From: Candidatus Aquidulcis sp.
GTDB lineage: Bacteria; Chloroflexota; Anaerolineae; Anaerolineales; UBA4823
Assembly: GCA_020723385.1 (NCBI GenBank)
Contig: DYIZ01000013.1
Coordinates: 1,733 to 65,732, forward strand
Reading direction: 5' to 3'
Length of the DNA: 64,000 nt
The position numbers and the translations under genes were made by a program. Under the pieces are notes generated by a model. The model had not been told where the DNA came from. It searched no databases and saw only the letters and a list, made by a program, of their open reading frames with translations. Below are positions 19,313 through 57,703 of this stretch, in pieces (the stretch's first letter is position 1; each line of letters opens with the position of its first letter).

Positions 19313-19328
19313 GGTTGACCTCGATAAC

Positions 19329-35532: not shown

Positions 35533-36633
35533 ATGAATGCTCAATCCGCCCCAATTTTGGGTTTCGTCACAGAATATTTCGGCCGGCAGCGTTCGGTCAA
35601 GCCCGCCCAGTTCGCAGATAACGAGCTGATCAAGCCGATCACGCCGTTGAAAACTTACTTCCTTTTCGGCGCTTATCTCAACCTTCCCCCAAATGTTGCT
35701 GCGGTTGTCACTTACACCGATGGGCAGCAAACCATGTTCCGCACGGGCGGCTTGCTTACTTTGCCGCCCGGCTCATATGGGTTGCAATATGTGGATATAC
35801 GCCAGCAGCGGACTTACCTGCCCGACGTGCGCGCCGACACGCTCGACGCCTGGCAGGTAACCCTGGCGCTCGACATCACCTGGCAGGTGCGCACACCCTT
35901 GCAGATCGTCACAACGAACCGGCCTTACCAGGCGCTCATCAACGAATGCCGCGCCGCGGCGATCAATTTTATTCAATCGAGGAACCACGATAAATTGATC
36001 CCGGCGCGGGAAGGCACGCCTCTTGAAGATACCGAAATCTCCGAAGCTATCCTGAACCAGTTGCGGGCCAGCCCAACCCTCAATGGTTTCCATATTTACG
36101 GCATCAAAGTCCTCGAACGGCGCGGCGACCCGCTTCGGCTGGATAAAATTCGCGAATCCAATGTTGAGCAAACCAAATACCAGCAAGCCCTGCTCGTGGA
36201 AAACGAAAAACTCAAGCTCGAGCTACAAAAGCTCCAGCAGCAAGTTTCTCTCACCCAGCAGCGCGGTGAGGTGGCTATGCAGGAGGCGCGCGCCAGCCAG
36301 CAGGTCAGCAAAGCCCAGGCCGAATCGCAAGCCGATGTGTCGGACATCTTGCTGCGCATGAGACGGCAGGCCATCGAGTTGGAAAACCTCAGCCGGGAGC
36401 AGAAATTCGAGCAGGAGAAATTCCTCAAAGGCCTCGATACGATCAGCCAGTTCGCAAGCATGTTCACCCAGCTTCAGATGACGCCCGGCCTGCAGCGCAG
36501 CATGGATGATAATTCGCTGGACGCGATGACCCGTCTGATGAAAGCCATGCTGCAAGCCCTTCCGGCAAACGAAAGCGGCGCGCCAACGACCAATGTGCTC
36601 CCGGCCGTCAACTTGCGCAGCCTGGATAAATAG
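35533..36633 (+). CDS. SPFH/band-7-like protein with a C-terminal coiled coil and no transmembrane anchor
   Basis: YVDIR...ADTLDAWQVTLALDITWQV pattern followed by Gln/Glu-rich helices; AAGGAGG RBS. Confidence 0.55.
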   Translation: MNAQSAPILGFVTEYFGRQRSVKPAQFADNELIKPITPLKTYFLFGAYLNLPPNVAAVVTYTDGQQTMFRTGGLLTLPPGSYGLQYVDIRQQRTYLPDVRADTLDAWQVTLALDITWQVRTPLQIVTTNRPYQALINECRAAAINFIQSRNHDKLIPAREGTPLEDTEISEAILNQLRASPTLNGFHIYGIKVLERRGDPLRLDKIRESNVEQTKYQQALLVENEKLKLELQKLQQQVSLTQQRGEVAMQEARASQQVSKAQAESQADVSDILLRMRRQAIELENLSREQKFEQEKFLKGLDTISQFASMFTQLQMTPGLQRSMDDNSLDAMTRLMKAMLQALPANESGAPTTNVLPAVNLRSLDK

Positions 36634-36759: not shown

Positions 36760-37956
36760 TTGGACATTGGTTGGCTGGAAATAACCCCGGGACGGCAAGA
36801 GAATTGGGAAACACTCGAACCAGCCTTCGGCCAGCCAGCAGGCGATGGCTGGCATGCCCAATTTGCTTCACTCATTCGTGTCAGGCCCATGGATCAACGC
36901 GCCAAACGCAAGTGGGGCTTCAACCTCGGCGCGCTGCTCGACGAGGCCATCGAACGCCAGCGGCTGTTCATCCAATCCCGCCATTTTTCCGGCGTCCCCG
37001 AAATGGGCGACGAGCCGCCCGAGCGGCGCACCATCGCCCTGCGCGCTATCCATCATCCCCAGGCCGAACGCCTGCAGCTTGTGCTGGTCGCCAAAGTCTG
37101 GGGGGCGACCCTCGAGGCAGTCCGCCAGGCCGCCACAGATCATTGGCACGAGATCCATTCGACCTTCCCCACCGATTATGAGCTGATTCCCGCCCGCTCG
37201 CTGGAATCTTTCTACAATCTGGCCGGCTGGCGCATCCTGCAAGACGCCGCCCAGCCCAACACCATCGCTGAAATCCAACGCTACGAAAACGTGCTCAATA
37301 CCGGCAGCGACAAAATGTACCTGCTCGGAGCGTGGAAATATACCAACACCTCCAACGAGCAAACCTGGCGCACCCTGCAAGGCGCAGACCGGCGCATTCT
37401 GTACAATGTCACCCTGCGCCCCACTGTGCTGGACGAGTTGGAACAAGCCGCCCTGCTGGTTATCGCCCAATATGCCGAGAAAATTGCCAGCCAGGCCACG
37501 CTGCCCAACGTCAAACCCTATGCGGAGTTCGCTGCTAAAAACTACGCTTACCTGCTCCAACAATTGCGTAAACCTTTCATTGTCCAGGCGCAGGTTGTTG
37601 CACCGGAAGGTTTGCCGGAATATCTGCCGCGCAACATCGGTTACGCCATGACTTACCGCAACGATCGCGAGCCGACCACACCGGGATTTCAGATCACTCG
37701 CCCGGCAAACGCTGCTGAAGTCGCCGCCTGGCGGGCCAATCTCATCTGGCTCGAACCCGAAGTTGCTACCGGGCCAGTAATTGACCCGCGTTTTGTCCGG
37801 GTGCGGAAGATGACCGATGCTTACGAGGCGCGCGGCCTGCTCTGCCTGCCCTTCCCGCCCGACAGCGAACTGCCGGACGTGCATTTCGCTGAAAAAATCG
37901 AAGAGCCGGAAGTTCGTAGTGACGGCATTAGCCGTCCGGAAACGGGCGGCGACTAA
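36760..37956 (+). CDS. Hypothetical protein
   Basis: 398-aa ORF, TTG start after AAGGAGG, co-oriented within the operon; no catalytic motif recognised. Confidence 0.75.
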   Translation: MDIGWLEITPGRQENWETLEPAFGQPAGDGWHAQFASLIRVRPMDQRAKRKWGFNLGALLDEAIERQRLFIQSRHFSGVPEMGDEPPERRTIALRAIHHPQAERLQLVLVAKVWGATLEAVRQAATDHWHEIHSTFPTDYELIPARSLESFYNLAGWRILQDAAQPNTIAEIQRYENVLNTGSDKMYLLGAWKYTNTSNEQTWRTLQGADRRILYNVTLRPTVLDELEQAALLVIAQYAEKIASQATLPNVKPYAEFAAKNYAYLLQQLRKPFIVQAQVVAPEGLPEYLPRNIGYAMTYRNDREPTTPGFQITRPANAAEVAAWRANLIWLEPEVATGPVIDPRFVRVRKMTDAYEARGLLCLPFPPDSELPDVHFAEKIEEPEVRSDGISRPETGGD

Positions 37957-38003: not shown

Positions 38004-40223
38004 ATGACCACTTCCAATTCCGTCACCTTCACCGTCGTCAAACATCTGCCTTTCGGGCTGCTGGTTCAGCTCGAAGATGGGCGCAGCGGCGTCATCCGGG
38101 TACGCGAGACCTCGTGGAGCGCCGAGGAGCGTCAAAACTGGCAGCAGATGTTCCCGGCGGGGTGGCAATCACGCGCCGTGATCCTGAAAATGGGCGACGA
38201 CGGACACCTGGAATTGAGCCTGCGATTGGCGCGCAACGATCCCTGGGAGCAGGTTCCGGGCCGCTACCGCAAGGGGCAGGTGATCCAGGGAGTTGTCACC
38301 GGCCTGACGAACTACGGTGTGTTCGTCCAGCTTACCGAGGGCGTCACTGGCTTGCTGCACGCCTCGCAGCTCCCCGATTGGGTCCAGCCCAACCCATTGG
38401 AATTATTCTGGCCCGGCGATCACGTGCGGGTGAAGATCGAACAAATAGACCTGGCGCACCGCCGTATCAGCCTGGGGCTGGCGACATCTGCCTTGCCAAT
38501 AGAACCCCAACCGGTTCAGCCGCGCCCCACCCGGCCTGCCACCACCCCACTCGCCGGCAGGTCATCCCCCAGAATCACGCTCGACCAATTCCTGCGATCC
38601 GGATTCCCCCGGCAGTTCATCCTCATCGTCGAGGATGATCCCATTCAATCCACGGCGGTTGCCACCTGGTTGAGCAAAGTTGGCCAGCGGGTGGTTGTGG
38701 CGGCCAATGGGGCTGAAGCGCTTGCCTGGCTCGACCGGGAATGCCCCGACATCGCCCTGGTAGACCTTGGGCTGCCCGATACCCTGGGGAGCGACCTGGC
38801 CCGCCAGATCCGCCAGCGCTGGCCGCAAGTGAAATGCACCCTCGCCACCGACTGGGCGCGCGCCGACGAGCACACCCGCGATCTGGAAACGTTGAGCGCG
38901 GCGGGTGTGGGGCTGCTGCTCAAGCCGCTGCTGCCCGATGATCTGCTGGATCTATTGCAAAATCGAACGCTTCCGGCTTCGGTATTAACCGGCGAGCCGA
39001 TTCAGCCTGCCCTGCGTCAGTTCGATCTGCCCTCGCCGGGACGACAGGCTATGCAAGCTGCGCTGCTCGCCCTGCTCGACCGCTGCCGGTCGCAAACCAG
39101 CTTCGAGGCAGCCTTTCTCTTCGCGGTGGACACTGCCCAGCGAACGGTCGAGATCGTGCAGCGCAGCGGAGGCGGCGCGATCAATAAGGATGCTTTGCCG
39201 TCCGTCATCTACAGCCCGGTGCGTGACGCTGCCGAAGACGGGGAAGTGGTGGCAGTGGAGCGGCTGACCGAGCAAGATGCCCGCCGGTTTCGCTACCTGC
39301 TGGATTTCTACGGGCTGGCGGCGTGCCTGGGCGTGCCGGTTCCGGCGGGCGCGCCGGTGAAGCACGCCCTGATGCTGCTCGACAGCCGGACGCGGGCGAT
39401 CCCCTCCGAAGCGGTTGCTTTCACTCAATCGGCGGCGCTTGCCCTGGGGGCGCTGCTCGACCGGCAGGCATTCCAAGAGCAGGCTATTCTCGTTCAGCGC
39501 ACTGCCCTGCTCGGACACCTGACCCGCGGGCTGGTGCATGAGATCAACCATCAACTCAACCCGTTGATCTTCTCTGCCGACAGCCTGGAAAAATCACTGG
39601 AGGACATCTCTGCGCGGGCCGCTTCGCCCGAGAGCGTGAGGCAAAAGGCGCAGGAAGCTTCCGGCTACCTGGCCGATGTGCAAAAAGCGGCGCTCTCGCT
39701 GACCAGCACGACGCGGCAGTTCGGGCGTATCCTCACCCGCAACCGTCCGCAGCTTCTGCGGGTGGATGAGCTGATCCTCGAAACGGCTTATTTGCTGAAG
39801 GATGCCAGCCGCCAGGCGAAGGTGAGCATCGAGCTGGCAGCGACCAACGCGCTGGTGTTGGTGCGCAGTGAAGGTTCGGCCATCGAGCAGGTTTTACTCA
39901 ACGTGCTGCTCAACGCCGTTCAGCAAATCGGCGAATGCCGCCCCACCAGCGGCGGGTGGGTACAGGTGCGTATCGAAACCTTTACCCCACCGTCGGGGCA
40001 GATCATGTGCCGGATATCGGTCGAAGATAATGGGCCGGGGATTCACCTGCGCCTATGGGAGCAAATCTTCGAGATTGGTTATTCCACCCGCAAGGAAGGC
40101 AGCGGGATGGGGTTATATATCTCCCGCAGCCTGATGGAAGCTGCAGGGGGCAAAATCTATGTGGCGGACAGCCACATTTTGAGCGGGACGACTTTTGCGC
40201 TCGAGCTGCCCTGCCAGGTATGA
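38004..40223 (+). CDS. Hybrid histidine kinase with two N-terminal S1 RNA-binding domains (S1-S1-REC-GAF-HisKA-HATPase)
   Basis: S1: FGLLVQL..GRSGVI, DPWE linker, GVVTGLTNYGVFVQL.EGVTGLLHASQL...RRISLGL; REC: VEDD, VDLGLPD, LLKP; kinase: HEINHQL, NVLLNAVQ, DNGPGI, GSGMGL. Confidence 0.88.
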   Translation: MTTSNSVTFTVVKHLPFGLLVQLEDGRSGVIRVRETSWSAEERQNWQQMFPAGWQSRAVILKMGDDGHLELSLRLARNDPWEQVPGRYRKGQVIQGVVTGLTNYGVFVQLTEGVTGLLHASQLPDWVQPNPLELFWPGDHVRVKIEQIDLAHRRISLGLATSALPIEPQPVQPRPTRPATTPLAGRSSPRITLDQFLRSGFPRQFILIVEDDPIQSTAVATWLSKVGQRVVVAANGAEALAWLDRECPDIALVDLGLPDTLGSDLARQIRQRWPQVKCTLATDWARADEHTRDLETLSAAGVGLLLKPLLPDDLLDLLQNRTLPASVLTGEPIQPALRQFDLPSPGRQAMQAALLALLDRCRSQTSFEAAFLFAVDTAQRTVEIVQRSGGGAINKDALPSVIYSPVRDAAEDGEVVAVERLTEQDARRFRYLLDFYGLAACLGVPVPAGAPVKHALMLLDSRTRAIPSEAVAFTQSAALALGALLDRQAFQEQAILVQRTALLGHLTRGLVHEINHQLNPLIFSADSLEKSLEDISARAASPESVRQKAQEASGYLADVQKAALSLTSTTRQFGRILTRNRPQLLRVDELILETAYLLKDASRQAKVSIELAATNALVLVRSEGSAIEQVLLNVLLNAVQQIGECRPTSGGWVQVRIETFTPPSGQIMCRISVEDNGPGIHLRLWEQIFEIGYSTRKEGSGMGLYISRSLMEAAGGKIYVADSHILSGTTFALELPCQV

Positions 40224-40232: not shown

Positions 40233-43200
40233 ATGTGCCGTGTTTTGATCCTCGATGACGATCCTTTCTTTTGCAAAACGATAGCCGAGCCGCTCAACCG
40301 GGTTGACGAAGGGCGCAGTTACCACACGGTGAGCGCCACGCGCGTCGAAGATGCGCTGCGGGAAGTCCGGCTGGCGGTTGAAAGCAGTAAGCCGTTCGAT
40401 GTTTTGTTGATTGACCTGCGCTTGAGTGAAAACCAGGATGGCATCGAGGTGATGCAAACCCTGCTGCACCTCAGCCCATCCTCGGACGCCATTATCCTGA
40501 CCGGTCTCGATGACAGCCCTGACGCCGGGCTGAGAGCCTACCAGGCCGGGGCTTACCGGTATATCTACAAACCGGTGCATCCCAAAGAGCTGGTGCTGCT
40601 GCTCCAATCGCTCAGGAACTGGCGCAAAGTGCAGCATGAGCGCAGTTGGCTGCAAGTATTCAACGAAGTGGCTGAGCAGGCGCTGAACTGCCTCAGCTTT
40701 CAAGACGCGGCCCACATCTTTGCGCGCGGAGCGCTTCGGCTGGGTTTCGAGCGGGCGCGCCTGTTCGAATTTACCTCCGATTACCCGGATATTTTGGTGG
40801 GCGTTTGCCAGGAGGGATGTGAAACGCTGGACGGGTTCGAAGGCGCTTTTTTTGCAATTGCTGAGGCCGCCTACTTCGAGCGGGCAATCCACACCCGGGA
40901 AATACAGTTCTTCAAGGGCCGTGAGTTGGGGCCTGCCTTGATGGAGCGCACCTTCGGAGAGTCTTTCTCCCCTCCGGTTGGCGAATGGGCCGTATTGCCT
41001 TTGTGGATCAGTGAAAAATTTGTCGGCATCATGGTTGTGGATAACGCCTCGCGCGATCATCGCATCCACGAGGAGGATCGCAAGCAGTTGCGCCTCTACG
41101 CCCGGCTGGTTGCCGGGAACCTGGAGCGCATCCGGCTATATGAACAGGAACGCACCAGCCGCCAAAGAATCGAATACATCGCCGAAGAAGCGCGCCGGAC
41201 AGCCCAGCTCGAAAGCGAAGATGCCCATCGGTTGGACCTTTTGCAACGCGCCAGCGTGGAGCTGCTCAACATCGCCAGCCAGGATGAGGAGAAGTTTTGG
41301 CTCACCCTGCTGACTCTGGCAACAGCGAACTACGCGCTGGGTTTCAACCGGGCATGGATCTTCCTGGCGGAAGCCGGCAACACCCGTTTGCAAGGCAAAT
41401 TGGGCGTTGGCCACCTGGATTCCCAGCGCGCACAAACCGACTGGGAAAAAGACCTCGCCAGTCAGATGACATTCGAGCGGTTCCTGCAAGCGCTGCACTC
41501 GAATACAGTACAACACACGCCGCTCGAAGGCATGACCCGTGATTTTGCGTTGGAGATCGGCCTGTTTGGCGGTCTGTTCAAAGAGGTGCTAGCGACAGGT
41601 CAGCGAGCAGTCCTGTCGTCAGAGGAAGCCCTGACTCTCCTGCCGGGGCCGTTCAACCGCAAATTCGCCCCGGGCGACTGCGCCGTGCTGCCCTTCCGGG
41701 CCGGTCGGATGGTCATCGGGGTCATGGTGGTAGATAACAAACACGATGGCAAGCCCATCCTGCCCACCACCCTCGACCGGCTTGAGACTTTTATCAACAT
41801 TGCCGGGCTGGTCTGGCAAAATCTGATCCAGCGCAAGCAGCGTGAGGCCCTGCTGGATGCATCGAACGTTATCCTGGGCAAAGCCAGCCAGCAGCCCCTG
41901 GGCGACTCACTGCGCCGTATCTGCGACTCGGCGCGCACCGTCACCGGGGCCGAATGGGCGATCATTTACCCATTGAAACCCGGCGGCGGGCCGTATACCT
42001 ACGATGTGCCCAACGTTGGATACTCCGGCGATTTCAACCCGGGTCAAATCAAGGATAAGCCCCGCCAGAAGGGCGTCGCGGCCCACATCCTGCGCAGCGG
42101 GACTCTGGTCGTGGGGGATGTCGGGCGCACAGAGAACTCGCCCAATGTCGAGAAACTGTCGCAGCACAAATTCATCCAGCGCAACGGCATCCACGCCCTG
42201 ATCGGAACACCCATCCGCAGCGTCGAGCGGGAGGAAATGCTCGGAATCCTGTTCCTCAATTACCGCACAGCGCAGACGTTCACGCAGCAAGAGATCATGC
42301 AAGCCGAGTCTTTCGCCAACCTGGCGGCGCTGGCAATCCTCAATGCCCGCCACGCCGAAAAGGTCAGCCGCAGCCTGAGAGAGGCGCTCTCCCGGGGCGA
42401 GACCAGCCAACGCGAGCTGGAGCTGATCCAGCGGGTGCTGGCTGACTCGTTGGCGAATTCCAGCGAGCCAGGTGTCATTCAAACTTTGCTGACCAACCTC
42501 CGCCGGGCGCTCGACCACCCCGACATCAACCCGGCGCTGGTTCTGCATCACTGGGAAGCCGAGACTCTGGAAGACGAACCCCGCGAAATCTTATTGCAAT
42601 ACACCCCCGGCCCCGAGGGCGGGGTCATCAAAACGCGCATGGGGGTCAGTGAAGACAAAACAATCCTGGCGATGCTGCGCAGCAAACATGCGGCAGTCAA
42701 AACAATCGGGCGCAGGCTGTATGCTCCCATTGCGTTGGGCCAGACGGTGATCGGCGTGCTATCTGCCGAGATGGACAACGCAGCCCAGGCCAAAGATTAC
42801 CAGCCAGTTTTGGAGCGCTTCGCCTTTGCGGCTGCAATGGCGCTGGACAACGCCCGGCAGCAAACTAATCTGCACCATGTTCTGGACGCCGCCCAGGCGG
42901 TGACCGCGCCAATCAACCTGAATCAGACCCTGACGGCCATCTTGCAAAGTGTGCGCAATGTTTCGCCCGATCTTTCGACGCTGACGCTGTGGTACCGCGA
43001 CCCGGAGACTGATTGCATCAAAATGGGGGCGTCTTTCGGCGTGCGCAGTCTGGCCGATCTGACCCAGTTCGATCCGGGACCGGAGAGCATCGTCTCGAAG
43101 GTGATGCGCTCGAAGCGCCCAATTTGGGCTTCTCCCCTGAAAAAGCATCACTTGCTGTGGGGGCGTTTCGTTCGGGATGAGAAAATCGTCTCATCGGCGG

Positions 43201-44543
43201 CTTTCCCGTTGCGCGCCGACAATGTTGATGTGGGGGCGATGTTCTTCAACTACCGCAGCGAGCACTACTTCACCGACGAGGAACAAACCATCTTCAACAT
43301 ATTGGCCGAAGTCGTTGCGGCCAGCATCCGCGATGCCCTGCACCTGGAAACCGAGCGCAAGGAGCGCCGCAGACTGGATGCCGCCCTGCGCACCACCTCC
43401 GCGGTCGGCGACTCACTGAGCCTGGTTCAGGTCTTGCAGAAGGTTCTCGCCTTACTGAGAGAATCCTTCCCCGATACGAATCCCTGCATCCAGACGTTCA
43501 ACGAAGACGACAACCTGCTCGAATTCATCCCGGCGGTGTGGAATTATTACCGGATTGATAACGAACAATACCGCGACCGGCGCAGCCTGCGGCTGGATGA
43601 GCGCGCTATCGCCTGCCGGGTGGCCCGGCAGACATTGGCAGAAAAGCGGATGGTCATCGAAAACATTGGCGATATTCGGGAGGATCCCGATTACCTGCCC
43701 CTCATCAGCCAGACCCTGTCTGAGTTGTGCGTCAGCCTGGTAGCCGGAGAAAATCTGCGCGGGGTGCTGGTGCTGGAACGCGCCCGGCTCAACGGCTTCG
43801 AGGCAGAAGATGTGGAATTGGTCAAGGCCATTGCCCAGCAGCTCAGCCTGGCGATCGAACGCGCGCGGCAGAACGACCAGCTCAGCTTTCGCAGTACCGT
43901 AGCGGCAGCCACTGCCTGGGCTGCGGACATCGCTCACGACATCAACCGCGAAGTCGGAGCGATCCGCCTTTATGCGCACTTGATCGGCGCCGAGAAGGAC
44001 AAGCCTAACAATATTACTGGCTATGCGCAGAAAATCGAAGAGAGCGCGGCGCGCCTGGCTTCCGCCGGCCCCTGGCAAATCCCCGAGCCGCGTCCCGTCA
44101 TCGTGGATACCTTCATCCAGCAATGGGTCGGCGAATTCACCCGCAACAGAAAAGAAACCATCCTGGTGCAATTCGATTTTCACTGCACCGGCGCAGCCAT
44201 CCTGACCAACCCATTCGCTTTTCAGCGGGTGCTGCGCCAGCTTGTGCGCAATGCGGCGCAGGCGATGGAACAACAAACCGAACGAAAATTGACAGTGCGA
44301 ACCTTCCCCGCCGAGGGGAATTTGATCGAAATCCGTTTCGAGGATACCGGCCCCGGGGTTGAGGAGGATATCCGTCCGTTGATACTCCAGCAGCAAGTCA
44401 CGACCAAATCGGGGCCGGGCGGTTACGGGCTGCTGCTCACCCGCCAGATGATCGAGGACATGGGCGGCAAGATTCGCCTCCTGCCCAGCCCGCCCGGGGC
44501 TGGCGCTATCTTCTCGATCAAGCTGCCCATCCGGCCCGGTTAG
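40233..44543 (+). CDS. REC plus multi-GAF soluble histidine kinase
   Basis: ILDDD, IDLRL and YKP receiver motifs; about 5-6 GAF repeats; AHDINRE, RNAAQA, DTGPGV and GYGLLL. Confidence 0.9.
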   Translation: MCRVLILDDDPFFCKTIAEPLNRVDEGRSYHTVSATRVEDALREVRLAVESSKPFDVLLIDLRLSENQDGIEVMQTLLHLSPSSDAIILTGLDDSPDAGLRAYQAGAYRYIYKPVHPKELVLLLQSLRNWRKVQHERSWLQVFNEVAEQALNCLSFQDAAHIFARGALRLGFERARLFEFTSDYPDILVGVCQEGCETLDGFEGAFFAIAEAAYFERAIHTREIQFFKGRELGPALMERTFGESFSPPVGEWAVLPLWISEKFVGIMVVDNASRDHRIHEEDRKQLRLYARLVAGNLERIRLYEQERTSRQRIEYIAEEARRTAQLESEDAHRLDLLQRASVELLNIASQDEEKFWLTLLTLATANYALGFNRAWIFLAEAGNTRLQGKLGVGHLDSQRAQTDWEKDLASQMTFERFLQALHSNTVQHTPLEGMTRDFALEIGLFGGLFKEVLATGQRAVLSSEEALTLLPGPFNRKFAPGDCAVLPFRAGRMVIGVMVVDNKHDGKPILPTTLDRLETFINIAGLVWQNLIQRKQREALLDASNVILGKASQQPLGDSLRRICDSARTVTGAEWAIIYPLKPGGGPYTYDVPNVGYSGDFNPGQIKDKPRQKGVAAHILRSGTLVVGDVGRTENSPNVEKLSQHKFIQRNGIHALIGTPIRSVEREEMLGILFLNYRTAQTFTQQEIMQAESFANLAALAILNARHAEKVSRSLREALSRGETSQRELELIQRVLADSLANSSEPGVIQTLLTNLRRALDHPDINPALVLHHWEAETLEDEPREILLQYTPGPEGGVIKTRMGVSEDKTILAMLRSKHAAVKTIGRRLYAPIALGQTVIGVLSAEMDNAAQAKDYQPVLERFAFAAAMALDNARQQTNLHHVLDAAQAVTAPINLNQTLTAILQSVRNVSPDLSTLTLWYRDPETDCIKMGASFGVRSLADLTQFDPGPESIVSKVMRSKRPIWASPLKKHHLLWGRFVRDEKIVSSAAFPLRADNVDVGAMFFNYRSEHYFTDEEQTIFNILAEVVAASIRDALHLETERKERRRLDAALRTTSAVGDSLSLVQVLQKVLALLRESFPDTNPCIQTFNEDDNLLEFIPAVWNYYRIDNEQYRDRRSLRLDERAIACRVARQTLAEKRMVIENIGDIREDPDYLPLISQTLSELCVSLVAGENLRGVLVLERARLNGFEAEDVELVKAIAQQLSLAIERARQNDQLSFRSTVAAATAWAADIAHDINREVGAIRLYAHLIGAEKDKPNNITGYAQKIEESAARLASAGPWQIPEPRPVIVDTFIQQWVGEFTRNRKETILVQFDFHCTGAAILTNPFAFQRVLRQLVRNAAQAMEQQTERKLTVRTFPAEGNLIEIRFEDTGPGVEEDIRPLILQQQVTTKSGPGGYGLLLTRQMIEDMGGKIRLLPSPPGAGAIFSIKLPIRPG

Positions 44544-44665: not shown

Positions 44666-46303
44666 ATGAGTGATAGCACATCTCAAAATCTGTCCGGTTG
44701 CAACCAGGCGCGGGTCCTGGTCGTCGAAAACGAGGACGAATATCGCCAGCTCTACGGAATCCTGCTCAGGCATTGGGGCTACGAGCCAGTCATTGTCGAA
44801 GGTGAAGGCCAGATTCTGTTGGATAACGCAGTGGCGATGAGCCGGGACATGCGCTGCCAATTGGCGCTGGTGGACATGCGCCTGCTCGACAATTCTGACC
44901 CCAATGATGTCAGCGGGCTGGAGCTGGTGCCAAAGTTAAAACCCACCCAATCCATCGTCGTCAGCGGTTTTGGCGACCATCGCAAGGCGATTATGAGCAT
45001 CAAACAAATGGGCGCGGTCAGCTTCGTCGGCAAAGAAGACGGGGCCGAAAGCTTGCAGGATGAACTCGACCAGGCGGCGCTCAGATTCTGCGCCAGCCGC
45101 CGGAAGCTGGAGATCATCCCAGGCCACGTGGGGAAGCAGGTGAACCAGAGTCTCTTTCCCGGCGTGGCGTCTCCTGCCGAAGACGAACCCGCCGAACTGC
45201 TGGCGCGCCTGTTTCCCGAGGCGAATCGCATCTCGGTGGAACGGCTGGACGACCCCGACCGGCAGATGGTCAGCCGGGCGCCGCGCCCGCGCTCGATGAT
45301 CTTAATCACCCACGCCGACGATTTCCAGCCGGTAGTGGTCAAACTGGCGCGCGCCCATAAAGTCAAAAAGGAAGTCGAGCGCTACCGAGAGCACATCGAA
45401 GACCGGTTGACCGGCAGCTTCAGCCCGCCGCTGAAAGCCTGGGAGACGTTGTGGGCCGTAGGCGGGATGGTTTACCCATTCATCGGCGCGACGACCGTCG
45501 AAAACTTTACACGTTATTATGCATCAGCCACAGCGAGCGACATCGAACACAGCCTGGAAATATTCTTCAAAAGGACATGGTCAGGGCTGTACGCTGCCCG
45601 GGCTCAGAACCAGAAAAGGGGTATCTTCGAGGCTTATTGCGATGTTTGGGATCGCGACTGGTTCGATACGCGCCTGGCCGCCTTCGAGCCGATCGTCCCG
45701 GCGAGCGAGATGCCAGCGCAATGGCGGCATTTGCATGTTCCCGATCCGGTTGCCTGGCTGAAAACGCGCATCCAAAACAAGGCCAGCCTGCCCAAAACCG
45801 CCCTGGCTGTGACGCACGGCGACCTGCACGGCGATAACATGCTGGTTGATGATAACCGCAATATCTGGGTGATTGATTTCGAGCGCAGCGGGCCTGGCCC
45901 GATCTTGCAAGATTTCGTCGAGCTGGAGGCAGACATCATTTGCCGGCTGGCTGGTCTGGCTGATGAGGATTTTGCCAGCTTTTACAGCCTATGCCGGGTG
46001 GCGGCGCAACCCGAAGGTCTCGGCGACCCGGCAAAACCAACCGCCGGCAATAACCCGGAGCTGCTCAAAGCCGTGCAGGTGATTGCCGCGCTTCGCCGGC
46101 TGGCAAAGGAAGTCACCGGCGAGGAAGACACACAGCAATATCTGTGGGGGCTGCTTTTCAATGCTTTGTTCCGCGCCACACTGCTCGACCCGAAAACGCA
46201 AAAACGCAGTTTGCAGCGGGCGTTGATGATGGCCAGCATCCTGTGTCACCGGCTGGAACACTGGAACGAACCCTGGCCCCCGGAAAATTGGCCCAATCTA
46301 TAA
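44666..46303 (+). CDS. Receiver domain fused to an APH/protein-kinase-like (TCAD9-like) phosphotransferase
   Basis: REC: LVVENE, VDMRL, FVGK; kinase: VVVKLA, KKEVERY, HGDLHGDN, IDFERSG, LQDFVELE. Confidence 0.8.
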   Translation: MSDSTSQNLSGCNQARVLVVENEDEYRQLYGILLRHWGYEPVIVEGEGQILLDNAVAMSRDMRCQLALVDMRLLDNSDPNDVSGLELVPKLKPTQSIVVSGFGDHRKAIMSIKQMGAVSFVGKEDGAESLQDELDQAALRFCASRRKLEIIPGHVGKQVNQSLFPGVASPAEDEPAELLARLFPEANRISVERLDDPDRQMVSRAPRPRSMILITHADDFQPVVVKLARAHKVKKEVERYREHIEDRLTGSFSPPLKAWETLWAVGGMVYPFIGATTVENFTRYYASATASDIEHSLEIFFKRTWSGLYAARAQNQKRGIFEAYCDVWDRDWFDTRLAAFEPIVPASEMPAQWRHLHVPDPVAWLKTRIQNKASLPKTALAVTHGDLHGDNMLVDDNRNIWVIDFERSGPGPILQDFVELEADIICRLAGLADEDFASFYSLCRVAAQPEGLGDPAKPTAGNNPELLKAVQVIAALRRLAKEVTGEEDTQQYLWGLLFNALFRATLLDPKTQKRSLQRALMMASILCHRLEHWNEPWPPENWPNL

Positions 46304-46320
46304 CAGGAAAGGTGATGATT

Positions 46321-47670
46321 ATGTACGAATACGGCCCACAGCACCCATTATCTTACCGGCAAGAAGTCCTGACTCCCCTTTTCGAGCGCATCCGCGTCGG
46401 CGAATCCTGCGTGGTGGTTGGTCCGGCCAGCATGGGGAAGACCCGCCTGCTGGATTTCATGATGCGCCCGGATGTGCAGGATCACTATCTCGGGAAGCAG
46501 TCAGGTGAAACCATTATCCTGCGGGCCGACTGCAACCGGATGGCGCAGGCCAATGAGTGGGGGTTATTCGAGATGATGCTCACCGCTCTGGTCGAGGGAT
46601 CGGATCAACGACCGAGATCCCGCAATTACCAAAAGCAGCTCAATGATCTCCGTGAACCTGTCATTTTGCGGGAAAACGCGCTTTTAGCCAACCGGCATTT
46701 GGAATTGGCCGCTCGCAGCCTGATCAAAGAAGCCGGGATGAAGCTGTGTTACGTTATGGATGAGTTCGATGAGACTTACCGGCGGTTTCCCGCACTGGCG
46801 CTGGCAAAACTGCGCGCCTTGCGGGATCAATATAAGAACCGGCTGTGTTATGTTCTATTGATGCGCAATATTCCGGAACGCATCCGTGACCCGGAGGATA
46901 GCGAGAGTTTTTACGAGCTATTCTCACGGTGGGTCATTGGGCTTGGCCCGTATAACGATGACGACGCAGCGCGTATCGAAGCCCAGTTAGAAGACCGCCG
47001 CCAGCACAACTTTCCTATGCAGATCAAAACCAACCTGCTGAGGATGGCAGGGGGCCACGCCGGGATGATCGGCGCTTTGATGGACATCCTGACCAAACAC
47101 CCTGAATGGGGCCTCGACCAGGCTAACCTAACCCAATTGGCGGAACAGCCAGCGATATTGGAGGAGTGCCGAAAATTATGGGAGGGCCTACCCGAGGAGG
47201 AGCATTACGGGTTAGCCAACCTCCAGCGGGGGGCTTCGATCCCGGAGAATATCCGCACCCGCCTGGGGCTGAAGGGACTGGTCAAAACCGACGGAGCCGC
47301 TGCCCGCATCATTCCGCCGCTTTTTGGTGAATATATCCGAAAATTCGGGCCATCAGCCCCCGGGCAAGTCTGGCTCGACGAGAGCGCCCACACGATCCAG
47401 GTCGAAGGGCGCATCATCAAAAATTTGACTGCGCTGGAATTCAAACTGGCTGCATTTCTCTATCATCACATCGGTCAAATCTGCCGGTGCGATGAAATCC
47501 ACGAGCAGCTTTTCCCCAACGAGCCGGCATTCACCAACGAGAGCAATACCCGGATTGACACGCTCGTACGGCAACTGAGAGACTCTATCGAACTCGATCC
47601 ATCCCACCCGCGCTACTTGATCGCGGTGCGCGATGTGGGGTATAAGCTGGCTGCGACCGCGGAGGGATAA
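46321..47670 (+). CDS. STAND-type P-loop NTPase with a C-terminal OmpR-type winged helix
   Basis: Walker A GPASMGKT, Walker B YVMDEFD, AGGHAG; LTALEFKL...RQLRDSIE.DPSHPRYLIAVRDVGYK; start after AGGAAAGG. Confidence 0.85.
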   Translation: MYEYGPQHPLSYRQEVLTPLFERIRVGESCVVVGPASMGKTRLLDFMMRPDVQDHYLGKQSGETIILRADCNRMAQANEWGLFEMMLTALVEGSDQRPRSRNYQKQLNDLREPVILRENALLANRHLELAARSLIKEAGMKLCYVMDEFDETYRRFPALALAKLRALRDQYKNRLCYVLLMRNIPERIRDPEDSESFYELFSRWVIGLGPYNDDDAARIEAQLEDRRQHNFPMQIKTNLLRMAGGHAGMIGALMDILTKHPEWGLDQANLTQLAEQPAILEECRKLWEGLPEEEHYGLANLQRGASIPENIRTRLGLKGLVKTDGAAARIIPPLFGEYIRKFGPSAPGQVWLDESAHTIQVEGRIIKNLTALEFKLAAFLYHHIGQICRCDEIHEQLFPNEPAFTNESNTRIDTLVRQLRDSIELDPSHPRYLIAVRDVGYKLAATAEG

Positions 47671-47682
47671 TCCCGACCGGTC

Positions 47683-47727
47683 AACCGAGAATCGGAGAGG
47701 CGGTATCGCTCTCTCCGATTCTCGGTT
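47683..47727. terminator. Hairpin at the junction of the two convergent signalling operons
   Basis: AACCGAGAATCGGAGAG / CTCTCCGATTCTCGGTT followed by T residues. Confidence 0.7.
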
Positions 47728-47835
47728 TTGTTATTGCTTGGTGATGCTGGCGGTGGACGACAGTCCACCGTTTGCGGCGTGCGCATTTGAGACAGGGACT
47801 GTCGTCCCCTCTGAGCATAGGGGTGAGTGTGCGGT

Positions 47836-49339
47836 TCAGCTTTGCACGATCAGCACCGGCGAGACCCAGGTGAGGTCGTCTTTGTTGCGGCGGGCCAATT
47901 CCCGCCTCGAGCAGCGCCAGCTCGGGGCTGCCATGATTGGGCAAAGAACGGTAGAAAGCCAGAGTCATCACCTGGGCGTTATCAACATCCACCGACCACC
48001 GGTACCCCAGAACAGACGGCACGCCGGATTGAATGATACTATCGGCAATTCCCAAGTAATCGTTGTATAGCAAATCCTTCGAATCCCCGGTCGAGACTCC
48101 ATCGCAGCACGTCAGGTGAACCAGGCGGGTATCCGAATTTTCGAGCAGGAAACGCAAATCATTCCCGGTCAATGGCATTACATTGCCTGAACGCTTCTTG
48201 TGTTCCCAAAAGAACAGACTGCTGGTTTCCGAAGAAGATTCTCGGTAGATGCCGTGCCCAATGTAATGGACAATGTGAAATTTGTTGGCGTTCAACAATT
48301 CCTGTACTTCATCACACGATGCATCATCAGTCGGCAGGTATTTCAGATCGAGCCACTTCAATGGAGACAGCAATTTCGCCAGGGCAGCCCCCATCTGGTC
48401 AATTTCATCCAGCCTCGGCTCCGTGTTCGAGACGAGCAGTAAAACACGCAGCTTATTACCTGTGCGGACAAGTTGCCGGATCAAATCAGCAGAAATTGGA
48501 ACATGGTTGGTCATTACGCCTCGAACCTGGCGCGTCATTGGATGGAGCAATGCCAGATAGTCACTCGCATCGTCAGAGAATAAAAATTCGAGTGGTAATC
48601 CCACCAGATCGCGGCTGGTCTCGAATGCCAACTGAAGTTTCTGATTCTGGCTAACGCTACCCAAAGCTCGTTGATAACTGCTCAATACTGGAGGGTGCTG
48701 CTCGAACAAGAGCCGGTATAGATCTCGCCCCACAGTCTTGAGAATGAATCGGCCCTTGAGCATATCCAAAATGTGCTCGTTGCCCCAGGCTTTGAACAAA
48801 GTCGAATCGAGATTTAGCAAATTGGGAGAATTGGTCTTAAATCGGATTTTTCCACTCACTTGCAGGTGAATCCGATGGCCCGGCTCTAAAGAAACGCACA
48901 ATTCACAATCGTCGCGCTCATACCAAAACGCAGATAGTTGTTGAAATAACACCGCACGGCTGACATATTCCAACAACAGGTTGATTTCATTCTTTTGCAG
49001 AAAGCCAAAGGCTGGAGAATTTCCTTTTTTGTCCGGCTCGAGCGCGCCGCGCACCATCTCTACATCCGCATAGCCAGTCAGAATGATCACAGCCGTCGCT
49101 GGATATTTTTCGTGGATGTGGTGCATAAGATGAATGCCATCGCGATTATCCTCGTCGGTATCATCCAGCCGGACATCCAAAACTGCTACTTGAAAAGATT
49201 CGGAAGATAGAATCGAGTTTGCTTCTTCCAAACTGGCTGCGGGTATCACATCATATCCATCAGAAACCAATAAACTCACTAACGTTTGCCTGACATCTGG
49301 GAAATCCTCAACAACTAAAATACGGCTTCGTTTTGTCAT
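47836..49339 (-). CDS. Receiver plus CHAT (caspase-like) protease; apparent frameshift near 47902
   Basis: REC: VVEDF, LDVRL; CHAT: GLPLEFL, HYIGHG, HLTCCDG, GVPSVLGYRWSVD; the alternative frame ends ELARRNKDDLTWVSPVLIVQS* at 47836. Confidence 0.8.
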
Positions 49340-49379
49340 GCATTTTCTCCACGCGAAGTAAGAATTCAGCCTGCAGACC

Positions 49380-50957
49380 CTAATGTTTCAGCCTCTCCGC
49401 CACCACGGCCGCGGTAATCAGGGCGTGGTCGCGGTGGGCTGGCTCCATGTCCATCACGGTGACGACTTTGATGGCATTGAACAGGACTCCGATGAGATAA
49501 GCCCGCGCGGCATCGGGGTCGTTTTCGGGCAAGGCCAGCTCGCGGATTTTTTGGATGGCCCGGTGGGCTTTGTCAATCTCCGGGATGGCTGCCAGCTCCG
49601 GTGGAAGCTCGACCCTGCGCAGGTCAGGTGCATTGTAGGAAAGACAATCCCACTCGTAGAGCCGCTTCCAGTCGCTGCTCTGCACCATCATGAAACGGGT
49701 GAAGGTTTCAAAGGAAACGTAATCTTGCAGCAACGGCCCCCGGTCGGCGACGGCGAAATCAATCAGCCAGGTTTCGTTCCGCTCGTCTACCAGCACGTTG
49801 TAGCCGTAGAGGTCGCCGTGAATGATGGCGATTTGGGAGTCGGCCCGCAAATCGGCTGTGAGAGCGAATTTCATCGGATCGGGCAGAAGGAACTCTCCTC
49901 CCAGCCAGAGTCCCTGGCTGTCGCGGTGAAATGGGTGCCGCCCCGCCATCATGCGCTCCAACGAGCTTTGCATCACCTCGGATTTGAGGCGCACCAGCCG
50001 CATGTAGGTTTCACGCAGGTCGAGTTTGGAATGGGATGTAATAGCGTTACGCCGCCAGGGGAAGCAGGTTTCCTGGAATAGATTATCGAGGGCCGACAAA
50101 ACCTGGGCGAGGCCGGCCTCCCGATAGAAGATGGCGAAATCGCGGGTGGCGCCCAAACCCGCGAAGGTGTACAAAATCCCCGAGAGGCTGCGGGTGCGGG
50201 CGAAATGAAGCGTCAGCGGCAGGCGATGCCCGCCCACAATGCCCTGAACCAGCTCCCGGTATTTATGGCGTTCTTTCTCGACCAGGGCGTGCTCCCCGAT
50301 CTTGGCGACACGCGCCTCACCGCGTCCCCGCCCGCGGTACCAGGGGGTCACAGCAAAGACAGCCGCCCCGCTGTAGCCACGTTTCATTGGGCGAACCTCG
50401 ATCCGCTCGCATTCGTAAAATAGCTTTTGTAGAATTTCGCAGGTTTCTTCAGCCACCTGCCCGGCATCGGGTTTGGCAATGTCAATAAAGCGGATTTTAT
50501 TAGCCACATGCGGGATGAATTTTTCGGTATCTTCGATAATGAGTGCATCGTTGATCCGCAGAGCATTGTCGAATGCCCCTTTCACCTGCTCCGGCAACCG
50601 CATGATTTCTGATTTTTGGAGAAAACTGTAAGCCGGAGCAAAACCATTGGAATCCGGCTGGAGCGCTTCCTGCACCATCCCGACAGTGGCATACCCGGTG
50701 AGGATAATCACAGCGACGGTGGGGTCTATGCCATTGATATCGTGCATCAGGGTGATGCCATCCTGATTGTCCTCATCGGTGTCGTCCAGGCGCACATCCA
50801 GCACGGCCACGTGAAAACGCTCGGCCTCGAGCAGCTGCAAGGCTTCAAAACGGCTGGAAGCGGTGCGAACGAGATAGCCTCTGTCAGAAAGCAAACCCGA
50901 CAGCGTTGTACGCATGTCGGGCAGATCGTCAACGAGGAGAACGCGGCCTTTACACAT
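49380..50957 (-). CDS. Receiver domain fused to an APH/kinase-like (TCAD9-like) phosphotransferase, second copy
   Basis: REC: LVDD, LDVRL; kinase: GYSGAAV, RVAKIG, HGDLYGYN, WLIDFA, LQDYVSFE. Confidence 0.82.
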   Translation of the reverse strand: MCKGRVLLVDDLPDMRTTLSGLLSDRGYLVRTASSRFEALQLLEAERFHVAVLDVRLDDTDEDNQDGITLMHDINGIDPTVAVIILTGYATVGMVQEALQPDSNGFAPAYSFLQKSEIMRLPEQVKGAFDNALRINDALIIEDTEKFIPHVANKIRFIDIAKPDAGQVAEETCEILQKLFYECERIEVRPMKRGYSGAAVFAVTPWYRGRGRGEARVAKIGEHALVEKERHKYRELVQGIVGGHRLPLTLHFARTRSLSGILYTFAGLGATRDFAIFYREAGLAQVLSALDNLFQETCFPWRRNAITSHSKLDLRETYMRLVRLKSEVMQSSLERMMAGRHPFHRDSQGLWLGGEFLLPDPMKFALTADLRADSQIAIIHGDLYGYNVLVDERNETWLIDFAVADRGPLLQDYVSFETFTRFMMVQSSDWKRLYEWDCLSYNAPDLRRVELPPELAAIPEIDKAHRAIQKIRELALPENDPDAARAYLIGVLFNAIKVVTVMDMEPAHRDHALITAAVVAERLKH

Positions 50958-50977
50958 TGCCCCTCACAAGGTATTGG

Positions 50978-51376
50978 TTATGGTAACACACGTTGAATTG
51001 TGGTCAACAATTGTACGATATCGGACTTGGGCACAAAATCCGAAGCCAGCACAAGGCCAGATGCATCCGGGCCGCGGGTGTACTGCACATCTTCGGTTGT
51101 GCCATAGCCAGTGACGATGATGATTTTGATCGAGGGCCAACGGATGCGGATTTTCCGAGCCAGCAACAAGCCATCTTTGTTATCTTCGTCGGTATCATCC
51201 AGGCGCATGTCCACCAGCGCCAGATCGAAGCGACCTGTTTCAAGGATCTGAATCGCTTGATCTGAGGATTCCGCCACCTCGACTTCGAATCCTTTGCCCG
51301 CCAGCAGGCCGCGCAGGGTAGCGCGCCAATCTGGAAGATCGTCAACCACCAACACCTTGCGCGGTTCTTTTGTCAT
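50978..51376 (-). CDS. Single-domain response regulator
   Basis: VVDD, VDMRL, VTGYG and FVPK; GAGGAG RBS. Confidence 0.9.
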   Translation of the reverse strand: MTKEPRKVLVVDDLPDWRATLRGLLAGKGFEVEVAESSDQAIQILETGRFDLALVDMRLDDTDEDNKDGLLLARKIRIRWPSIKIIIVTGYGTTEDVQYTRGPDASGLVLASDFVPKSDIVQLLTTIQRVLP

Positions 51377-51402
51377 GGGATTTCTCCTCGTGGGGATTCC
51401 GA

Positions 51403-51756
51403 TCACGGCTTCGATGAGAGCGGCAGCAGCTCACGGACGCGATTGAGCAAATCCTCTGACCCAAAGGATTTGGGGAAATAACGCACTGCACCCAGGCGGT
51501 AGGCGTTGAGCGCTTCCTGCGTGTTGGGCCTGACGGTGGTCACGATCACGCGCTTATCGGCATATTTCTCGCCGATTTCCTTGATGATATCCAAATGGCC
51601 CGAGCTGGCAATCACCAGGTCGAATTGGTCGTCTTCGAGCTGTTTCAAAGCTTCTTCGATGGTGGAGGCGACAACGATCTCGAATCGGCTCAAATCGTTC
51701 TTGACAAAATCAATCCAGCGTGGCTCGTCATCAATGATCAGGATTCGTGTTTTCAT
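51403..51756 (-). CDS. Atypical (pseudo) receiver protein
   Basis: IIDDE and YFPK are present, but FDLVIASSG has no Asp at the phosphoacceptor position. Confidence 0.8.
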   Translation of the reverse strand: MKTRILIIDDEPRWIDFVKNDLSRFEIVVASTIEEALKQLEDDQFDLVIASSGHLDIIKEIGEKYADKRVIVTTVRPNTQEALNAYRLGAVRYFPKSFGSEDLLNRVRELLPLSSKP

Positions 51757-56021: not shown

Positions 56022-56022
56022 T

Positions 56023-57378
56023 TCAATTCCTCCCGGCGCTGTGAACTGCCCGCCAGTGAAAATCATCCACCAATGATTGGTGGTAATCGTTCTCCCGAAA
56101 AGCCAGCCCTCGCCGGTCCAGCTCCACTCGGGTGATCAAATGGGGCATTCCCCATTCCTTTTCCAGATAAGCAATCTGACAACCGGTCAGCGTTTGCCCC
56201 TGGTTCTTATGCAATAATCGCTGGAAACACCGCTGGCCGCGCGCCAACGTTTTCGAAAATCGCTCGGTCTCGGCTGTGAAGTAAGCCAGCAAGCGCGCTT
56301 TCACCCAGGGGTCACAACAAACCGAGGAAACATTTTGCGAGACGCAATCCAACATGACCGGCAAAAAATTGGGAGATTGGATTCCAAGCAAAAGCTGCCG
56401 CGTGATCACCCCGCGGATCAGCATTTTGATGATGCGCTGCCGCCCATCCTTGCCCGGAGGGGGCGCGCCGTCAGCCACCAGGCAGTACAGGCCCTTGAGA
56501 TAGTCCGCTATGACCCGCTCGCTGGCTGCGGCCAGCGCCGCCGGAAGATCGTCTGCCCGGACGAAAGCGCGGATGCTCTCGATAATGGGCTGGTACAGAT
56601 CGGTATCGAAGACGGAGGGCGCGTTTTGCAGGATCATCGCCACCCGCTCGGAGCCGATCACCGTCTCGGTGAAGGGATCGTTCATCGGGAGGAAGCTCCG
56701 CCGGTCGGGGCCAAGCTCCCGGCAGATGAACAGCGAATTGGAGAACTCCACGAACCGCCCGCATTTGCATCCAGGGCGGCAATCCGCCCCACAGGCTCGC
56801 TCCCGCCCCCGGTCGTAGAAAAGCTCCGTGTTGGGGCCGCACTTCCGGGGAGGGGCGCTCCCCTCGATGCCGTTACCCTGGATCCAGTAATTGCTCTCGG
56901 CCCCCAGCCCAACGACCCGCTCTTCGGGTACGCCCACTTCCAGCCAAGCCCGCCGGGCCAGGTCATCCTCGGGCATAGGATTCCCCATCACATCGCCGCC
57001 CTTGAAATACGATACCCAGATGCGTTCCCGGTTTACCCCCAACACCATCGTCGCCAGCCGCCACATCCGGCGGATCGTCTCGGTTTTGCCGTTCGGCCCG
57101 AACTCGAACGCCCCCGGCATCTCGAACAGGCTGAGATGTACATCATCCGACCCAACTTTGTCGAGATCGAAATGGCGAAAACACTCTTGAACCAACACAT
57201 ATTGGTTACCATCCCGGCGAGGCGATTGGGACAAGGAGGTTTCCACCTGCACCAGACCGGCGCTCATCACGAACGACATTGGGATGGATGCATCCAGCAA
57301 CGGGGCGCGGGGCAACTGCTGGTACCCCAGCCCCTCGTAATATTTGACAAAACGCTGGCGGATCACATTCGAATCCAT
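56023..57378 (-). CDS. Truncated, divergent alanyl-tRNA synthetase paralogue (aminoacylation and helical domains only)
   Basis: IRQRFVKYY, QECFRHFDLDKVG, FEMPGAF, NYW, CGPNTELFYDRG, GCKCGRFVE, IGSERV, VIADY and ETERFSKTLARG; ends at about 451 aa with no editing or C-Ala domain. Confidence 0.85.
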   Translation of the reverse strand: MDSNVIRQRFVKYYEGLGYQQLPRAPLLDASIPMSFVMSAGLVQVETSLSQSPRRDGNQYVLVQECFRHFDLDKVGSDDVHLSLFEMPGAFEFGPNGKTETIRRMWRLATMVLGVNRERIWVSYFKGGDVMGNPMPEDDLARRAWLEVGVPEERVVGLGAESNYWIQGNGIEGSAPPRKCGPNTELFYDRGRERACGADCRPGCKCGRFVEFSNSLFICRELGPDRRSFLPMNDPFTETVIGSERVAMILQNAPSVFDTDLYQPIIESIRAFVRADDLPAALAAASERVIADYLKGLYCLVADGAPPPGKDGRQRIIKMLIRGVITRQLLLGIQSPNFLPVMLDCVSQNVSSVCCDPWVKARLLAYFTAETERFSKTLARGQRCFQRLLHKNQGQTLTGCQIAYLEKEWGMPHLITRVELDRRGLAFRENDYHQSLVDDFHWRAVHSAGRN

Positions 57379-57402
57379 GCGGCCTTTCACCCCAAAAACG
57401 AA

Positions 57403-57694: not shown

Positions 57695-57703
57695 TGCTAT
57701 AAT
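57695..57703 (+). promoter_or_regulatory. Extended -10 promoter element for dnaE
   Basis: TGCTATAAT about 50 bp upstream of the ATG. Confidence 0.55.

Follow-up and report, generated by a model that had tools for sequence, protein, structure and literature searches.

We analyzed a 64,000-nucleotide (nt) stretch of the genome of Candidatus Aquidulcis sp. (assembly GCA_020723385.1, contig DYIZ01000013.1, positions 1,733 to 65,732), hereafter the window, and within it a gene on the forward (+) strand at positions 38004-40223 that joins two ribosomal protein S1-type domains to a receiver and a histidine kinase. The encoded protein, referred to below as the S1-kinase, belongs to an unstudied family from filamentous Chloroflexota, and its S1 pair may couple the kinase to RNA. 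The gene is a single open reading frame (ORF) of 739 amino acids (aa) with an ATG start, and its limits coincided exactly with those in an earlier note that had been written from the DNA letters and a list of ORFs. Its domain order, S1-S1-REC-GAF-DHp-CA, was established with Pfam, NCBIfam, a motif check and an AlphaFold2 (AF2) model.

All parts of the gene lie on the + strand. S1 repeat 1 (residues 7-76, 38022-38231) was recognized by NCBIfam rpsA models, solved chains of ribosomal protein bS1 and the strands of the AF2 model, and S1 repeat 2 (residues 88-160, 38265-38483) by the Pfam S1 profile (PF00575, residues 88-158, E 4.1e-19, 69.2 bits against a cut-off of 22) and by alignment to the domains of bS1. 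Residues 7-159 aligned to two successive S1 repeats of the rpsA models. A Pro-rich tether (residues 161-203, 38484-38612), delimited by composition, low sequence identity and low predicted local distance difference test (pLDDT) values, leads to the REC domain (residues 204-320, 38613-38963; Pfam Response_reg over residues 206-318, 64.9 bits) with the acceptor D254, E210/D211, T282 and K307-P308. A second disordered linker (residues 321-349, 38964-39050), likewise of low identity and low pLDDT, is followed by a GAF domain (residues 350-486, 39051-39461), whose match to Pfam GAF_2 (residues 350-484, 22.1 bits) fell under the cut-off of 28.6 and whose fold was confirmed by the confident AF2 model. 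The DHp domain with H512 in the motif LVHEIN and the CA domain with the N, G1, F and G2 boxes occupy positions 39462-40220 and were identified by motifs, fold matches and HATPase_c (residues 626-737, 67.6 bits against a cut-off of 26.4). The S1 region thus combines a profile score above the curated cut-off with an OB (oligonucleotide-binding) fold, and the kinase part carries an H box on a DHp helix together with the four further boxes of a class I sensor histidine kinase.

The AF2 model, built from 34 family members, had a mean pLDDT of 83.6 and a predicted template modeling score of 0.67, was confident in every folded part and contained two five-stranded barrels, a receiver fold, a GAF fold and the catalytic domain. 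No membrane segment was found, the maximum Kyte-Doolittle value of any 19-residue window being 1.42, and the S1-kinase is predicted to be soluble. It was single-copy in its own genome at E <=1e-20, with 150 of 210 candidates scored. In a protein atlas the whole kinase matched no clusters other than ordinary REC/GAF/HK ones, and S1 was listed in none of them. Public annotations call the family proteins 'response regulator' or 'S1 RNA-binding domain-containing protein'. A scan for promoters and terminators gave results at chance level (3 found versus 4.2 expected and 16 versus 13.4, respectively).

The single-frame fusion of S1-S1, Pro-rich linker, REC, GAF and kinase described in the earlier note was confirmed. 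In a word-indexed search, 93 of 97 homologues (E 0 to 3.6e-74) carried S1, Response_reg and HATPase_c, and the other four were short or partial; the next matches were multi-repeat bS1-like proteins at 2.3e-45, followed by ordinary kinases at 2e-20 or worse. The same architecture recurred down to 30% identity and is therefore far beyond chance. In an exhaustive search, the family-type matches among the best 150 of 11,465 were all proteins of 727-759 aa or shorter fragments. For the analysis of loci, one genome per species was used; 329 stretches fitted family-specific peptide patterns, 271 of these encoded a relative and the best 80 were kept, 74 of which held an intact full-length frame. A separately built 2064-nt contig from run X1 spanned positions 38004-40067 without a gap, although X1 may be the window's own sample and then adds little. 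The misassembly that the earlier note had considered was rejected on these three grounds, namely the architecture of the homologues, the intact loci and the X1 contig across the junction. An artefact, whether misassembly or a frameshift that fused an S1 gene with a kinase gene, is hardly credible: nothing was found in its support, and while short S1-only proteins do occur in databases, they end in out-of-frame Arg-rich tails, and one of them, P0127, is identical to P0122 up to a frameshift.

Several sequences were set aside in this context. The short S1-S1 proteins P0123, P0124, P0127 and P0128 and the 444-aa P0096 were rejected as separate genes and appear to be calls of the full gene that were truncated or shifted in frame. 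P0327, a single sequence on a single 3521-bp contig, joins a family S1 pair and tether to the post-REC body of a TCAD9 kinase (the type encoded by a neighboring gene, see below) and lacks the REC-GAF-HK part of the S1-kinase, the whole second kinase of the cluster and the TCAD9 REC. Locus L066 has the S1-kinase and REC-TCAD9 as separate genes about 6.7 kb apart, and the halves of P0327 mapped to these (10004-10663 and 17382-17993) at 81% and 91%; no second case of an S1 pair-TCAD9 fusion appeared. Either a natural deletion of 6.7 kb or a chimeric assembly gave rise to P0327, which comes from a relative of Ca. Viridilinea and was excluded from the evidence. Relative to the window, the X1 contig carried five substitutions in a 31-nt segment of the REC-coding part (38901-38931; G>A, G>T, C>T, G>A and C>T), which probably reflects strain variation in the sample.

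According to the classes in the record titles, the 74 loci with an intact frame belonged to Anaerolineae (42), Caldilineae (11), Chloroflexia (6), Candidatus Thermofontia (2) and Ardenticatenia (1), with no class given for 12. One of the bins without a class was labeled Nitrospirae and nested inside Anaerolineae in the tree. The tree grouped the sequences by class, with 6 changes for Anaerolineae against a shuffled mean of 17.1, and none of 500 shuffles reached so low a value. Since the tree follows the Chloroflexota classes, the data fit an old gene that was mostly inherited vertically. In a phylum-wide sample, at least 4 of 401 genomes contained a match; two candidates per genome were scored, making this figure a lower bound rather than a prevalence.

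The motifs quoted in the earlier note were all present. Between the two repeats lies D79-P80-W81-E82, with D, P and W kept in 32, 32 and 34 of the 34 aligned family members to which all such residue counts refer, and the S1 pair is predicted to be rigid, with a conserved D-P-W linker. Repeat 2 ends in R153-R154-I-S-L-G-L (153-159), in front of the Pro-rich tether. Compared with the domains (D) of Escherichia coli bS1, repeat 2 scored highest with D4 (55.8 bits), followed by D5 (39.5), D3 (36.1) and then D6; D2 reached only 8.0 bits and D1 was unmatched. Its contact positions Y104, F107, H119, D149 and R153 correspond to Y, F, H, D and R of bS1 D4, and were aromatic at 104 in 30 of 34 and at 107 in 33 of 34 members, with H119 kept in 31, D149 in 26 and R153 in 30. 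In PNPase numbering, Phe19, Phe22, His34, Asp64 and Arg68 are given as the conserved RNA-binding set (PMC6705787); we mapped positions to this numbering through the bS1 D4 alignment and the coordinates of 1sro.

Repeat 1, searched on its own as residues 1-85, matched solved bS1 chains (9zcd_A, E 1.6e-13; E. coli bS1, 8e-8), and its strands in the AF2 model span residues 6-15, 18-23, 28-32, 55-63 and 69-72. R32, R34, E35, E70 and S72 were invariant in the family (34/34), with W38 and W46 kept in 33 and 32 members, respectively. By sequence, repeat 1 is best described as a conserved yet degenerate S1/OB fold and repeat 2 as a canonical S1 domain.

The modeled pair superposed on D3-D4 of Vibrio vulnificus bS1 (7a05; 170 columns, TMt 0.59, 32% identity) and also on bS1 in 9gut_B. 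In bS1, D1-D2 have lost nucleic acid binding and serve as the ribosome anchor, D3-D6 bind mRNA, and D3-D4 form the minimal platform for about 14 nt of single-stranded RNA, which is bound with micromolar affinity and no sequence specificity (PMC8287937). Sequence and model agree in likening the S1 pair to the mRNA-binding half of bS1 (D3-D5) and not to the ribosome-binding D1-D2. It shares with D3-D5 the consecutive S1/OB folds joined by a D-P-W-type linker, and repeat 2 shares with D4 the aromatic, His, Asp and Arg contact positions. Unlike bS1, the S1-kinase has only two repeats, lacks the D1-D2 ribosome anchor and is fused to a kinase, its repeat 1 is degenerate at the contact positions, and its score is far under the cut-off for rpsA (107.7 bits with the best rpsA-type NCBIfam model against 524, with two repeats against the four to six in rpsA). 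Because separate rpsA-type genes are present in the genome and the S1 pair is only 29-31% identical to them, it is no recent rpsA copy. The earlier note had proposed an RNA- or ribosome-sensing kinase. Our results support this proposal in part. The S1 pair appears capable of binding RNA, judging from the repeat 2 contacts retained in 26-33 of 34 members and the superposition on the D3-D4 platform, and may act as an input, an output or a tether. The results disfavor ribosome sensing in the manner of bS1, given the fit to D3-D5 and the poor or absent match to D2 and D1.

The kinase boxes, which the earlier note had read as complete, were invariant in all 34 members (H512; N633 and N637; D675 and G679; F689; G699, G701 and G703), and E513 beside H512 was kept in 33. 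In the REC domain, D254, K307 and P308 were likewise invariant, D211 was kept in 33 members and E210 in 31, the other three having D. The kinase is accordingly predicted to be catalytically complete and the receiver to be phosphorylatable. The GAF domain carries the family-specific motif YSPVRDxAED with S404 and P405 invariant, and its last helix runs into the DHp domain as one helix spanning residues 468-537 of the AF2 model, in which GAF is the sole sensor rigidly coupled to DHp. Mean pairwise identity was 44% for S1 repeat 1, 48% for repeat 2, 41% for REC, 38% for GAF, 31% for DHp and 46% for the catalytic domain, so that the S1 repeats are conserved to the same degree as the catalytic domain. 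The tether, with 9 Pro among its 43 residues, had a mean pairwise identity of 12% and a length of 35-58 residues across the family, and the second linker an identity of 10% and a length of 24-71 residues; pLDDT was below 50 at residues 167-189 of the former and 322-345 of the latter.

The closest solved folds were LvrB, HK853 and ZraS, with LvrB the best whole-chain Foldseek match (E 9.6e-18). LvrB is the published prototype Rec-controlled kinase, in which a coiled-coil signaling helix passes REC phosphorylation to DHp (PMC13269768). The S1-kinase resembles it in having an N-terminal REC with an intact acceptor Asp before DHp-CA in one chain, but differs in the disordered linker of 24-71 residues and the GAF domain that intervene in place of a continuous coiled coil, and LvrB is without S1 domains. 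The term 'hybrid histidine kinase' used in the earlier note applies only loosely. With the classical hybrid kinases of the ArcB, TorS and BarA type the S1-kinase shares a kinase core and a receiver in one protein, and the NCBIfam TorS and ArcB models weakly matched its REC and CA parts; unlike them, it has REC before and not behind the kinase and is without a membrane or periplasmic sensor. Pfam revealed no Hpt domain in the S1-kinase or in the 14 cluster and flanking proteins.

The S1-kinase gene heads a conserved same-strand kinase cluster, whose carriers include several genomes of Chloroflexales and Caldilineae. Neighbors were counted among the 80 loci, using for each gene only those with enough flanking sequence. 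Directly downstream in 72 of 73 loci was a second kinase of the type REC-GAF(n)-HK (40233-44543, +, 1436 aa), which in the window starts 9 nt after the S1-kinase stop. It is followed by REC-TCAD9, a kinase of APH fold (44666-46303, +, 545 aa), found downstream on the same strand in 58 of 60 loci and with its APH-type HGDLH..N and DfER motifs at least 90% conserved in 69 sequences. The next gene (46144-47670, +) encodes a STAND-type ATPase (AAA_16) with a C-terminal OmpR-type winged helix-turn-helix (wHTH) and was present downstream in 35 of 54 loci, in 32 of them on the same strand. Its Walker A and Walker B motifs were conserved in 59 sequences, while the wHTH was absent from most homologues; the conserved part begins near residue 71, and translation probably starts within a run of Met at residues 58-60 (about 46315-46321). 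Upstream lie the genes for an SPFH/Band-7-like protein (35533-36633, +, 366 aa; 35 of 70 loci) and, directly before the S1-kinase gene, an orphan protein (36760-37956, +, 398 aa; 37 of 75 loci) that always occurred together with the SPFH-like gene. Both were confined to the Anaerolineae subgroup that contains the window. The orphan protein had no match in Pfam, NCBIfam or PADLOC and only unnamed, mostly Chloroflexota clusters in the protein atlas. Clustering of all 1015 ORFs of the loci yielded no other neighbor in more than 12 loci, the surroundings of the S1-kinase gene consisted of ordinary chromosomal genes (DnaE, glycoside hydrolases and sugar transporters), and PADLOC detected no defense system at the locus, giving only weak REC-like matches to SduA.

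A paralogous module follows on the opposite strand (47681-56066, -), comprising a GAFx7-HK (51753-56066, -, 1437 aa), a second REC-TCAD9 (49380-50957, -, 525 aa) and a REC-CHAT caspase-like protease (47681-49339, -, 552 aa). At locus L002 this trio of genes shares the strand of the S1 cluster and is located just upstream of it. A third TCAD9 gene of the genome was located on another contig (L089, G000:C174, 7222-10851); it encodes a protein of 757 aa with a roughly 360-residue N-terminal region without family assignment, has no REC and no kinase neighbors, and is oriented divergently beside a gene for a 365-aa nSTAND1/AAA_16 ATPase with an OmpR-type wHTH. As this third gene pairs with a STAND-wHTH protein without any histidine kinase, the TCAD9 kinase and the STAND ATPase may form an output pair, with the histidine kinases acting as upstream controllers via the REC domains.

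The TCAD9 name originates from the vWA-MoxR ternary conflict systems of multicellular prokaryotes (Kaur et al. 2020, PMC7159879). In that study, the domains in effector position include S1-like OB folds, receivers and an APH-like kinase, and its authors state that the vWA-associated effectors contained no histidine kinase domains. Those systems and the S1-kinase cluster have in common the APH-fold TCAD9, a STAND-type ATPase and filamentous hosts, but the cluster differs in that Pfam found no vWA, MoxR or VMAP domain among the 22 window proteins scanned. A full-text search, with subscription papers and supplementary files outside its scope, returned no paper on an S1-domain or RNA-binding histidine kinase; the domain tables of PMC7159879 and the Rec-HK census of PMC13269768, which are supplements outside this search, might list the architecture, and PMC8195603 mentions S1 domains in another context only.

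Other genes of the window were observed in passing. The DNA polymerase III alpha subunit (57492-63038, +, 1848 aa) contains an intein with a LAGLIDADG homing endonuclease at residues of about 856-1264. Between it and the paralogous module, a 455-aa protein (56023-57390, -) consists of the catalytic region of a class II alanyl-tRNA synthetase only (tRNA-synt_2c, positions 2-422 of 552), with 44 nt shared between its ORF and the start of the GAFx7 kinase ORF. Positions 4316-21923 (-) form one block with three GH94 paralogues (cellobiose/chitobiose phosphorylase-type) and a GH3 enzyme, within which a 1178-aa protein (6790-10326) belongs to no Pfam family.

Known inputs of two-component kinases are small molecules, light, redox state, the state of the membrane and phosphorylation; the full-text search, which left out subscription papers and supplementary files, returned no report of such a kinase with a nucleic acid-binding module. 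For the S1-kinase we favor, with modest confidence and on the basis of sequence and model, a role of the S1 pair as an RNA-coupled input to the kinase. The S1 pair would derive from the mRNA-binding part of ribosomal protein S1 and be placed on a flexible tether in front of REC and the GAF-DHp-CA core. Binding of single-stranded RNA, mainly by repeat 2, would alter kinase output, either because the S1 pair docks on or lets go of the REC/kinase body or, alternatively, because kinase dimers gather on one RNA. Phosphoryl groups would then pass from H512 to D254 of the same protein and to the REC domains of the next kinase and the TCAD9 kinase, and the activity of the APH-fold kinase and the STAND ATPase, which in this genome has a DNA-binding wHTH, would be set as a result. 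In this scheme we infer RNA binding, the direction of information flow with S1 as input, and the phosphotransfer partners.

A contact between the S1 pair and the kinase body was also modeled by folding the pair against residues 200-739, which gave ipSAE values of 0.47, 0.49 and 0.49, the best of three controls scoring 0.00. The runs agreed in at least 85% of contacts with partner pLDDT values of at least 76, and no interface was assigned. In the calibration of the tool, 58 of 80 solved complexes attained the ipSAE mark, as did 2 of 110 mismatched pairs; values at or below 0.60 accounted for 7 of the 80 and for both mismatches. The tool rated the result as 'weak support', and a pass at such a level is more often wrong than right by that calibration; the docking was taken as a hint and kept out of the evidence.

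A number of observations weigh against an RNA-coupled input. No helical signal path leads from S1 to the kinase, both the S1 pair and REC being attached by disordered linkers. Most contact residues of repeat 1 are lost, position 17 being aromatic in 14 of 34 members and position 20 Phe in 3 of 34, and Arg replaces the canonical His in all 34; lacking most canonical contacts, repeat 1 may bind something other than RNA. The repeats carry a net charge that is close to neutral and varies between members (-5 to +5 for repeat 2), unlike that of a strongly basic RNA binder. In addition, there was no RNA-related conserved neighbor among the 1015 clustered ORFs of the loci and no Rfam family within the window.

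The strongest competing explanation, which we regard as doubtful but the least so of the alternatives, reverses the flow of information, with S1-S1-REC acting as the equivalent of a response regulator joined to its own kinase: GAF would sense a small molecule, H512 would phosphorylate D254, and the phosphorylated REC would change RNA binding by the S1 pair as the output. GAF is the only module rigidly coupled to DHp and carries the strongly conserved family motif, and the acceptor residues of REC are invariant. Phospho-accepting receivers of hybrid kinases hang on disordered linkers, as does the REC of the S1-kinase on its 24-71 residues, in a manner unlike the coiled coil of LvrB. However, effectors of response regulators are normally C-terminal to REC and connected by short linkers, whereas the S1 pair is N-terminal on a disordered tether of 35-58 residues, and the next two genes also start with REC, so that the cluster has receivers and outputs of its own. 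If this arrangement were true, the S1-kinase would be a post-transcriptional regulator with a logic like that of ANTAR-type regulators.

An unlikely possibility is that the S1 pair serves only for localization, directing the kinase to mRNA, to nascent transcripts or to an RNA-processing assembly while leaving its activity unchanged, so that signaling would occur at a particular site. This would suit the long flexible linker, which provides no rigid coupling to the kinase, and the weak binding of many RNAs without sequence specificity by pairs of the bS1 D3-D4 type (PMC8287937). It would fit less well with the missing counterpart of the bS1 D1-D2 ribosome anchor and with the invariant, family-specific R32, R34 and E70 of repeat 1, which suggest a specific contact over generic stickiness.

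Loss of RNA binding altogether we judge quite improbable. The S1 pair would then be a module for protein-protein contacts or another ligand, for example docking on a partner receiver or binding a phosphorylated or polyanionic ligand via the invariant arginines of repeat 1. The state of repeat 1, which has neither the canonical His nor the aromatics and has gained two invariant arginines on the same strand, speaks for such a role, as do the near-neutral net charge and the precedent of bS1 D1-D2, S1 folds that turned to protein binding after losing nucleic acid binding (PMC8287937). Set against this, repeat 2 keeps its five canonical contact positions across at least three Chloroflexota classes, and this conservation is hard to explain without selection for nucleic acid binding.

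In a more specific form of the RNA-coupled input, which taken as a whole we consider improbable, the S1 pair would sense free single-stranded RNA in the cytoplasm, for instance transcripts that are untranslated or foreign, and would thereby gate a multi-kinase cascade made up of the two histidine kinases, the APH-fold kinase, the STAND ATPase and, in this genome, the neighboring REC-CHAT protease. PKR has tandem dsRBDs on a flexible linker before a Ser/Thr kinase that acts as a dimer, and its activation by RNA has been shown. Its likeness to the S1-kinase is one of logic only, since the folds are unrelated (dsRBD versus S1, Ser/Thr versus histidine kinase) and RNA activation is conjectured here. 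If such a sensor did exist, it would be a bacterial counterpart of PKR in logic and could serve stress, developmental or anti-invader decisions in filamentous Chloroflexota.

Filamentous Chloroflexota are abundant in sludge, sediments and groundwater. For these bacteria, the S1-kinase is a good, as yet unproven, candidate for an RNA-coupled phosphorylation pathway. Should the S1 pair turn out not to bind RNA, the family would still present a clear case of an S1 fold recruited to a new role. If the S1 pair does bind RNA and signaling changes in either direction, the state of cellular or foreign RNA would be linked directly to a phosphorelay, and a first handle would be gained on a conserved, uncharacterized kinase/STAND cluster of the filamentous Chloroflexota.

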